The translations under genes were made by a program, and so were the position numbers. The notes under the pieces were generated by a model. The model was not told the DNA's origin, ran no database searches, and worked only from the letters and a program-made list of their open reading frames with translations. From assembly GCF_028641065.1 (NCBI RefSeq), contig NC_073384.1:67952001-68016000 (forward strand): 64,000 bases of DNA, given 5' to 3'. Within the stretch, counting starts at the first letter, position 1; each line of letters begins with the position of its first letter. This stretch comes from Leucoraja erinacea. Taxonomy: Eukaryota. This document shows positions 34,170-34,791 of the stretch, piece after piece.

Positions 34170-34791
34170 AGGATTGAGTATAGAAGCTGGGATGTGGTGT
34201 TAGGATTGTACAAGGCATTGGTGAGACCAAATCTGGAGTATGGTGTACAATTTTGGTCGCCCAATTATAGGAAGGATGTCAACAAAATGGAGAGAGTACA
34301 GAGGAGATTTACTAGAATGTTGCCTGGGTTTCAACGGCTGAGTTGCAGAGATAGGTTGAATAGGTTGGGTCTTTGTTCTCTGGAGCGCAGAAGGTTAAAG
34401 GGGGACTTGATAGAGGTCTTTGGAATGATGGGAGGGATAGACAGAGTTGATGTGGACAAGCTTTTCCCTTTGAGAATAGGGAAGATTCAGGCAGGAGGAC
34501 ATGACTTCAGAATTAAGGGGCAGGGGTTTGGGGGTAATATGAGGGGGAACTTCTTTACTCAGAGAGTGGTAGCGGTGTGGAATGAGCTTCCGGTGGAGGT
34601 GGTGGAGGCAGGTTCATTGGTATCATTTGGGAATAAATTGGATGGGCATATGGATGAGAAGGGAATGGAGGGTTATGGTATGAGTGCAGGCAGGTGGGAC
34701 TAAGGGGAAAAAAAATTTGTTCGGCACGGACTTGTAGGGCCGAGCTGGCCTGTTTCCGTGCTGTAATTGTTATATGGTTATATGGTTATAT
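34170..34791 (+). mobile_element. CR1 3' portion carrying dense A-to-G substitutions
   Basis: Same subfamily as 26240-26700, 40518-40987 and 47078-47890; 169-aa ORF at 34194-34703. Confidence 0.92.

Follow-up and report, generated by a model that had tools for sequence, protein, structure and literature searches.

Clustered A-to-G changes in genomic copies of a putative CR1-type LINE of the skate Leucoraja erinacea: a probable trace of ADAR editing before retrotransposition

Here we describe a copy of a long interspersed nuclear element (LINE) in the skate Leucoraja erinacea that differs from its relatives by a dense cluster of A-to-G changes (A>G, read on the sense strand of the element). 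The copy occupies 34170..34790 on the plus strand of a 64,000-nucleotide (nt) stretch of contig NC_073384.1 (assembly GCF_028641065.1, positions 67,952,001 to 68,016,000 of the forward strand), which we call the window and whose numbering is used below. Rel-homology exons lie on the plus strand, the strand of the LINE, both upstream (29789..29938) and downstream (56929..57072) of the copy, and are joined by an exon for the Rel dimerisation domain (60705..60962, plus strand) whose best solved match is c-Rel (E 4e-33, versus 4e-29 for RelA). The copy is thus intronic and sense to the host transcript, and the statement of the first-pass annotation, made from the sequence by eye, that it sits inside an NF-kB gene holds. 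The 27-kb span between the mapped Rel-domain exons of this c-Rel-like gene (29938-56929) is densely filled with repeats, and the exon for Rel domain positions 91-121 was not located. The location in a Rel/NF-kB gene looks incidental, and the copy is probably neutral intronic DNA.

Alignment with other genomic copies shows the element to be a young, 5'-truncated LINE, putatively of CR1 type, that retains the end of open reading frame 2 (ORF2), the 3' untranslated region (UTR) and the tail. The C-terminal remnant of ORF2 (34173..34703, plus strand) has no indel in its frame and stays open up to the stop codon at 34701-34703; it is followed by a predicted 3' UTR stem-loop (34722..34763, plus strand), which folds no better than shuffled sequences (z = -1.15), and by a tail of short tandem 8-nt repeat units (34768..34792, plus strand). 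A longer sister copy has an open frame of 677 codons with an RVT_1 reverse transcriptase domain, and the top named matches of its protein are bird reverse transcriptase proteins (35-51% identical) and proteins of a stingray (73%) and a catshark (57%). Bird LINEs are mostly CR1. CR1 elements are marked by 5' truncation, a short tandem-repeat tail in place of poly(A) and a 3' stem-loop; the skate family shows the first two together with the predicted stem-loop, and its sequence is consistent with a CR1-type family in a cartilaginous fish, given the stingray and catshark homologues. The family numbers ~14,833 copies in both orientations, by a genome count of one 35-base motif, and its background divergence is ~1%. 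Proteins labelled bacterial in public records (P0007, P0086 and P0118) are 47-63% identical to the vertebrate LINE protein, and these records are probably animal DNA contamination.

The focal copy was compared, column by column, with the base held by most of the 29 genome copies closest to it, itself excluded, and shows 31 differences, namely 28 A>G, one G>A, one A>C and one C>G, the last at the 5' junction. The first-pass annotation had reported 20 A>G changes over 34341-34645, about eight more in 34190-34340 and few changes of other kinds, and these counts proved exact (20 in 34345-34644, eight in 34196-34340, three differences of another type). The 29 sister copies carry 3-9 differences each, of mixed type, with only 0-3 A>G (mean 1.69); the Poisson probability of at least 28 A>G is 1.5e-24, and that of 28 in 31 at the background share is 5e-14. 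One of the Gs, at 34598, also occurs as a variant of the subfamily (in 28 of 170 aligned rows, repeat fetches included), which makes 27 the safer count. The changes affect 28 of the 147 As of a tract at 34196..34644 (plus strand), 22 of which have another change no more than 5 nt away (p = 0.002 within the tract). As preceded by G are disfavoured (3 of 47 changed, against 25 of 100 other As, p = 0.007), a 5' T or A is enriched (23 of 28 changes, p = 3e-4), and no 3' G preference is seen in this copy alone (p = 1.0). Clustering, the 5' neighbour and the end of the changes ahead of the tail had all been noted at first sight: beyond 34644 none of 38 As is changed (p = 0.001), so that stem-loop and tail are free of A>G. 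Of the 22 affected codons 15 are missense, and the alignment contains no gap or indel. With its single G>A, the copy bears no APOBEC-type G>A cluster on the plus strand of the element, and the adjacent short interspersed nuclear element (34819-34937) shows one A>G among eight differences and no cluster. Within the tract, a gap at 34205-34335 has one of 43 As changed (p ~0.005 against an even spread); other edited copies have no such gap.

The first-pass annotation had proposed a scan of other CR1 copies for strand-specific A>G clusters. Targeted motif searches, requiring G at TA or AA sites, recovered eight further independent insertions of this kind from several subfamilies, all with the clusters on the LINE sense strand: a copy at 120.0 Mb of C2 (75 A>G in 1031 nt), one in C18 (37 in 407 nt), one in C35 (31 in 773 nt), one in C1 (23, confined to ~370 nt of a 1406-nt copy), one in C1647 (16, mostly within 250 nt of a >2-kb copy), one assembled twice and counted as a single event (C348/C439, 31 and 30), one in C149 that departs from its own subfamily at 14 sites, 12 of them A>G, and a weak one at 11.4 Mb of C2 (14 in 1097 nt). 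The events bear different subfamily marks, and in a test that took in the other events except the C149 copy, the edits common to the focal copy and each of them were no more than context predicts (p 0.10-0.68). The yield of the searches varied. A single-G motif gave 34 matches, 30 of them fetched, and none of the 29 non-focal ones was hyperedited; a second motif search gave 185, of which 30 were fetched, including all eight with at most two mismatches; another gave eight, all fetched, which comprised six hyperedited events and two ordinary copies; and a further one gave two matches versus three for its reversed control, one match being hyperedited on alignment. Capture-recapture from two motif searches gives ~9 events besides the focal copy, a rough lower bound, and the sequences suggest a frequency of hyperedited insertions of the order of 1 in 1,000 copies. 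Matched strand searches used the same five TA dinucleotides, as sense A>G or as antisense-mirror T>C. The sense search gave ten matches, six of them hyperedited (five events); the mirror search gave 28, none with a T>C cluster, and most of these owe the C at one of the five sites to their subfamily.

Some of these copies have features of their own. In the most densely edited one (C18:38998927-38999510), a stretch of ~150-180 nt ahead of the 3' UTR is scrambled, with 64 deleted bases and many A>G and A>C changes, and the stem-loop and tail downstream are intact; the scrambled stretch could reflect slippage of reverse transcriptase on a template rich in inosine, or a local error of the assembly. 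At C149 (~84765-87034) the edited copy, 233 nt long, has an inverted 1.3-kb neighbour 1.8 kb away, and nothing but the A>G changes of the short copy and a single T>G of the neighbour sets the two apart, so that the edited copy is possibly a local re-insertion whose source is still present. The edited tracts of the long C1 and C1647 copies, which belong to different subfamilies, start at nearly the same point (reference 1641-1644, corresponding to 34311-34314 of the window); this limit might have been set by an antisense partner that was itself truncated, or by some boundary in structure. Among ordinary copies A>G mildly exceeds T>C on the LINE strand (49 versus 29; 231 versus 131), most of all after T, which may be low-level editing or an effect of A>G-biased copy selection.

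ADAR edits A to inosine (I) in long double-stranded RNA (dsRNA), and reverse transcription reads I as G. The pooled changes match the 5' preferences known for this enzyme. Pooling covered eight events, with the C439 duplicate, the C149 copy, isolated edits and the scrambled 3' stretch of C18 left out, as were 29 A sites at which >8% of background copies have G (a share that the searches inflated at some of them). The tracts contain 229 A>G and 25 private changes of other kinds; among 147 background copies the excess of T>C reaches at most 5. With the search-motif (discovery) windows excluded, the share of As changed falls from 75/227 after T (0.33) through 80/305 after A (0.26) and 20/167 after C (0.12) to 13/346 after G (0.04; p = 1e-21), and the best triplet is TAG, with 39 of 82 changed. 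This is the published order for ADAR: human ADAR1 and ADAR2 prefer 5' neighbours as U>A>C>G (Eggington 2011, Table 3, PMC3113232), 5' G is depleted in hyperedited RNA (Porath 2014, PMC4365171), and an APOBEC footprint would be G>A (PMC2873906). In the 3' UTR none of 108 As is edited, versus 88 of 693 in a stretch that played no part in discovery (p = 3e-6), and a search for two tail Gs gave six matches, none hyperedited upstream. A broader rule, by which editing would never reach the last 250 nt, does not hold, as C149 is edited to the last ORF2 codons and C18 carries A>G in its scrambled 3' stretch; sparing holds solely for the 3' UTR and tail.

Spectrum purity, neighbour order, strand and recurrence in independent copies support ADAR-type A-to-I hyperediting, as the first-pass annotation had proposed for the focal copy. 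Judging from the sequences, we put at roughly three in four the probability that LINE RNA held in a long duplex was hyperedited by ADAR and then retrotransposed in the germline. A LINE-bearing RNA would have paired with an antisense copy of the 15,000-copy family, which either lay inverted within the same transcript or paired in trans; the presence of the family in both orientations, and of inverted sisters at the focal locus, could supply such dsRNA. An antisense partner would also explain tracts that start abruptly inside longer copies. ADAR would have deaminated 10-35% of the favoured As in the paired RNA, presumably before insertion, and the LINE's own reverse transcriptase would have copied the edited RNA into a germline chromosome by way of its intact tail, reading I as G. 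The unedited 3' stem-loop and tail may have been covered by reverse transcriptase, or only RNAs with an intact tail may have been copyable. Because most ORF2 edits are missense, the enzyme would have come from an unedited message or been made before editing. The outcome is a dead, mutated copy with no new function.

Several results weigh against this reading. No target-site duplication was found at the tail of the focal copy, nor at any of nine junctions examined, so that the case for insertion by the LINE enzyme is made by the intact tail and the 5' truncation; CR1 elements are often without such duplications, and their absence therefore weighs little. The pooled 3' G preference is weak (0.21 versus ~0.16, p = 0.07). 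Some pairs of other events share more edits than the 5'-context model predicts (lowest p 0.001-0.002), a sign that hot spots depend on more than the adjacent base. Only two of the 28 Gs were seen in independent DNA contigs, and for the other G clusters no exact contig is listed, such contigs dropping rare paths and being unable to show absence. Counted as events, the strand test is five versus none (two-sided p = 0.06), which is only suggestive, and the antisense strand was the target of fewer searches than the sense strand. Inverted neighbours exist at four of the nine events (focal, C149, C1647 and the weak C2 copy); the C149 event and its near-identical neighbour differ almost solely by A>G, and a local origin is therefore possible for that event. 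The focal copy itself, sense to its host, shares the transcription unit with two inverted sisters. Finally, in cultured human cells no editing of L1 RNA was detected over >2.5 kb and restriction by ADAR1 was independent of editing (Orecchini 2017, PMC5224506).

The inverted sisters bear on a different order of events, which we consider unlikely: an unedited insertion, after which the c-Rel-like pre-mRNA folded on an inverted sister, was hyperedited and templated conversion or repair in place. One such sister, 7.5 kb upstream in the same gene (26241..26700, minus strand; two A>G, no T>C), is a possible duplex partner in host pre-mRNA, and another, of an older subfamily, lies 12.3 kb downstream (47076..47889, minus strand; balanced spectrum, no T>C cluster). 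A third sister, in the same orientation as the focal copy (40542..40988, plus strand), is unedited, with no A>G. The orientation of the focal copy and the inverted neighbours at other events, above all the C149 pair, speak for conversion in place. Such conversion, however, predicts clusters in both orientations, and the mirror search returned none in 28; five of the nine events have no inverted partner at least 85% identical within ~10 kb; and no reciprocal cluster was seen in the inverted partners examined. A duplex formed in place would also take in the tail, so that the sparing of the tail better fits a filter or shield at reverse transcription. Of the two routes that the first-pass annotation had left side by side, retrotransposition of edited RNA is favoured for the focal copy over conversion in place, and is unproven there in view of the inverted sisters.

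Less probable still is an error-prone polymerase, either a Y-family enzyme placing G opposite T in second-strand synthesis or the LINE reverse transcriptase, if it misreads A when nucleotides are out of balance. Errors of this kind would be expected on one strand and with a 5' T/A bias, as are 23 of the 28 focal changes, and would fit the weakness of the 3' G preference that is typical of ADAR. They would be hard to reconcile with a purity of 229 to 25 and the lack of any indel excess (no gaps in the focal copy), and tracts of up to ~830 nt with 11-18% of As changed fit poorly with such enzymes, whose processivity is low. Moreover, slippage would favour a neighbouring G, but 5' G is avoided, and the graded T>A>C>G order with its TAG optimum matches ADAR.

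Errors of assembly or sequencing, such as would arise if edited RNA reads had been used for polishing or if long reads confused purines, are likewise an unlikely source of the focal cluster, and we rate them below polymerase error. Host pre-mRNA would be edited on this strand, 26 of the 28 sites are unverified in reads, and the scrambled 150-nt stretch of C18 could be an assembly error. Confirmation of the Gs in genomic DNA, for which the first-pass annotation had called, was obtained in part: a contig of DNA run X1, at depth 18, runs from the unique flank across the 5' junction to 34201 with no difference and so contains the Gs at 34196 and 34197, the remaining 26 being unseen there. Only this 5' junction contig is informative, as a repeat depth of about a million from other copies swamps the element. 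Run X2, from the same sample, has a matching contig with four differences, two of them listed in the flank, and was not counted as support. Over 34054-34201 the X1 and X2 contigs are of equal length, one identical to the window and one with the four differences, and this flank is probably heterozygous in the sample. The C348 and C439 copies have in common their 5' end, 27 edits (against 4.5 expected) and three private changes other than A>G, and their flanks are 92-97% identical over at least 7 kb. Both are small unplaced contigs that may represent a segmental duplication or uncollapsed haplotypes; having diverged separately, they place the edits of that event on two sequences either way. In addition, G>A changes or indels of the read-noise kind are absent, and polishing with RNA would not keep to the LINE strand.

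An ordinary G-rich subfamily, raised in the first-pass annotation as a reason for caution, is refuted as far as assembled copies go, and chance (P ~1e-24) is no better: the subfamily does vary commonly at one of the 28 sites (34598), but the focal pattern occurs in no other copy, the best non-self genome matches being 93-95% identical and the best other match 94-95% (40 of 3298 candidates scored), and a doublet motif from the focal copy matches only that copy in a genome motif search.

Genomic copies of retroelements are known to bear footprints of APOBEC 'DNA editing' (Knisbacher and Levanon, PMC4866542; Lindic et al., PMC3880073). They resemble the skate events in being rare copies with strand-biased clusters of a single substitution against the subfamily consensus, fixed at insertion, and the ~0.26% of lizard L1 elements edited in this way is of an order similar to the rate here. 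They differ in that G>A arises from cytidine deamination of cDNA, whereas the skate copies show A>G in ADAR context. In the available sections of these reports, the screen of long terminal repeat (LTR) elements filtered for G-to-A, not A-to-G, and does not mention ADAR; the lizard screen found no signal in CR1. ADAR-type A>G hypermutation is on record for avian retroviruses (Rous-associated virus, as well as avian leukosis virus; review PMC12925331), in which edited RNA is likewise reverse-transcribed to DNA with dense A>G in duplex regions; those are infectious LTR viruses, whereas here a non-LTR LINE is affected, with germline inheritance, recurrence across subfamilies and a spared 3' tail. 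Hyperediting of repeat RNA by ADAR, which is heavy in elephant shark brain (Porath 2017, PMC5625713), also yields A>G clusters in repeats with 5' G depleted (PMC4365171, PMC5625713), but the changes there are confined to RNA, whereas here they are genomic and the 3' G enrichment is weak. In the restriction of human L1 by ADAR1, ADAR similarly meets the LINE RNA-protein complex, and that study allowed for rare L1 editing below detection (PMC5224506); the skate copies are consistent with being this rare edited fraction. In the open papers searched we found no description of ADAR-scarred genomic LINE copies; supplements and Carmi, Church and Levanon 2011 lay outside that search, and a prior description in print is possible.

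The phenomenon is real and recurrent, and works like APOBEC editing of retroelements with another enzyme, base and substrate. As to whether ADAR edits the RNA of mobilising retrotransposons, cell assays on human L1 saw no editing, and the genome screens cited here targeted only the G>A of APOBEC. A young family of 15,000 copies at ~1% divergence makes hyperedited insertions unmistakable and countable, and such copies yield a rate and a sequence context; the limits of their tracts hint at the duplex partner, and the sparing of the 3' end hints at a requirement of reverse transcriptase. On balance, and by a narrow preference, we think that the skate genome holds a countable fossil record of germline ADAR editing of LINE RNA, with ~1 in 1,000 insertions affected and each carrying its own barcode, in which the unedited 3' end would map the RNA that reverse transcriptase needs or shields in vivo, and that RNA editing would then recurrently give rise to inherited mutations in vertebrates, as the counterpart for ADAR of editing by APOBEC. 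RNA edits would in this way enter inherited DNA, and the resulting copies can mimic RNA editing in reference-based screens; it is likely that inherited DNA occasionally receives copies of heavily edited RNA.
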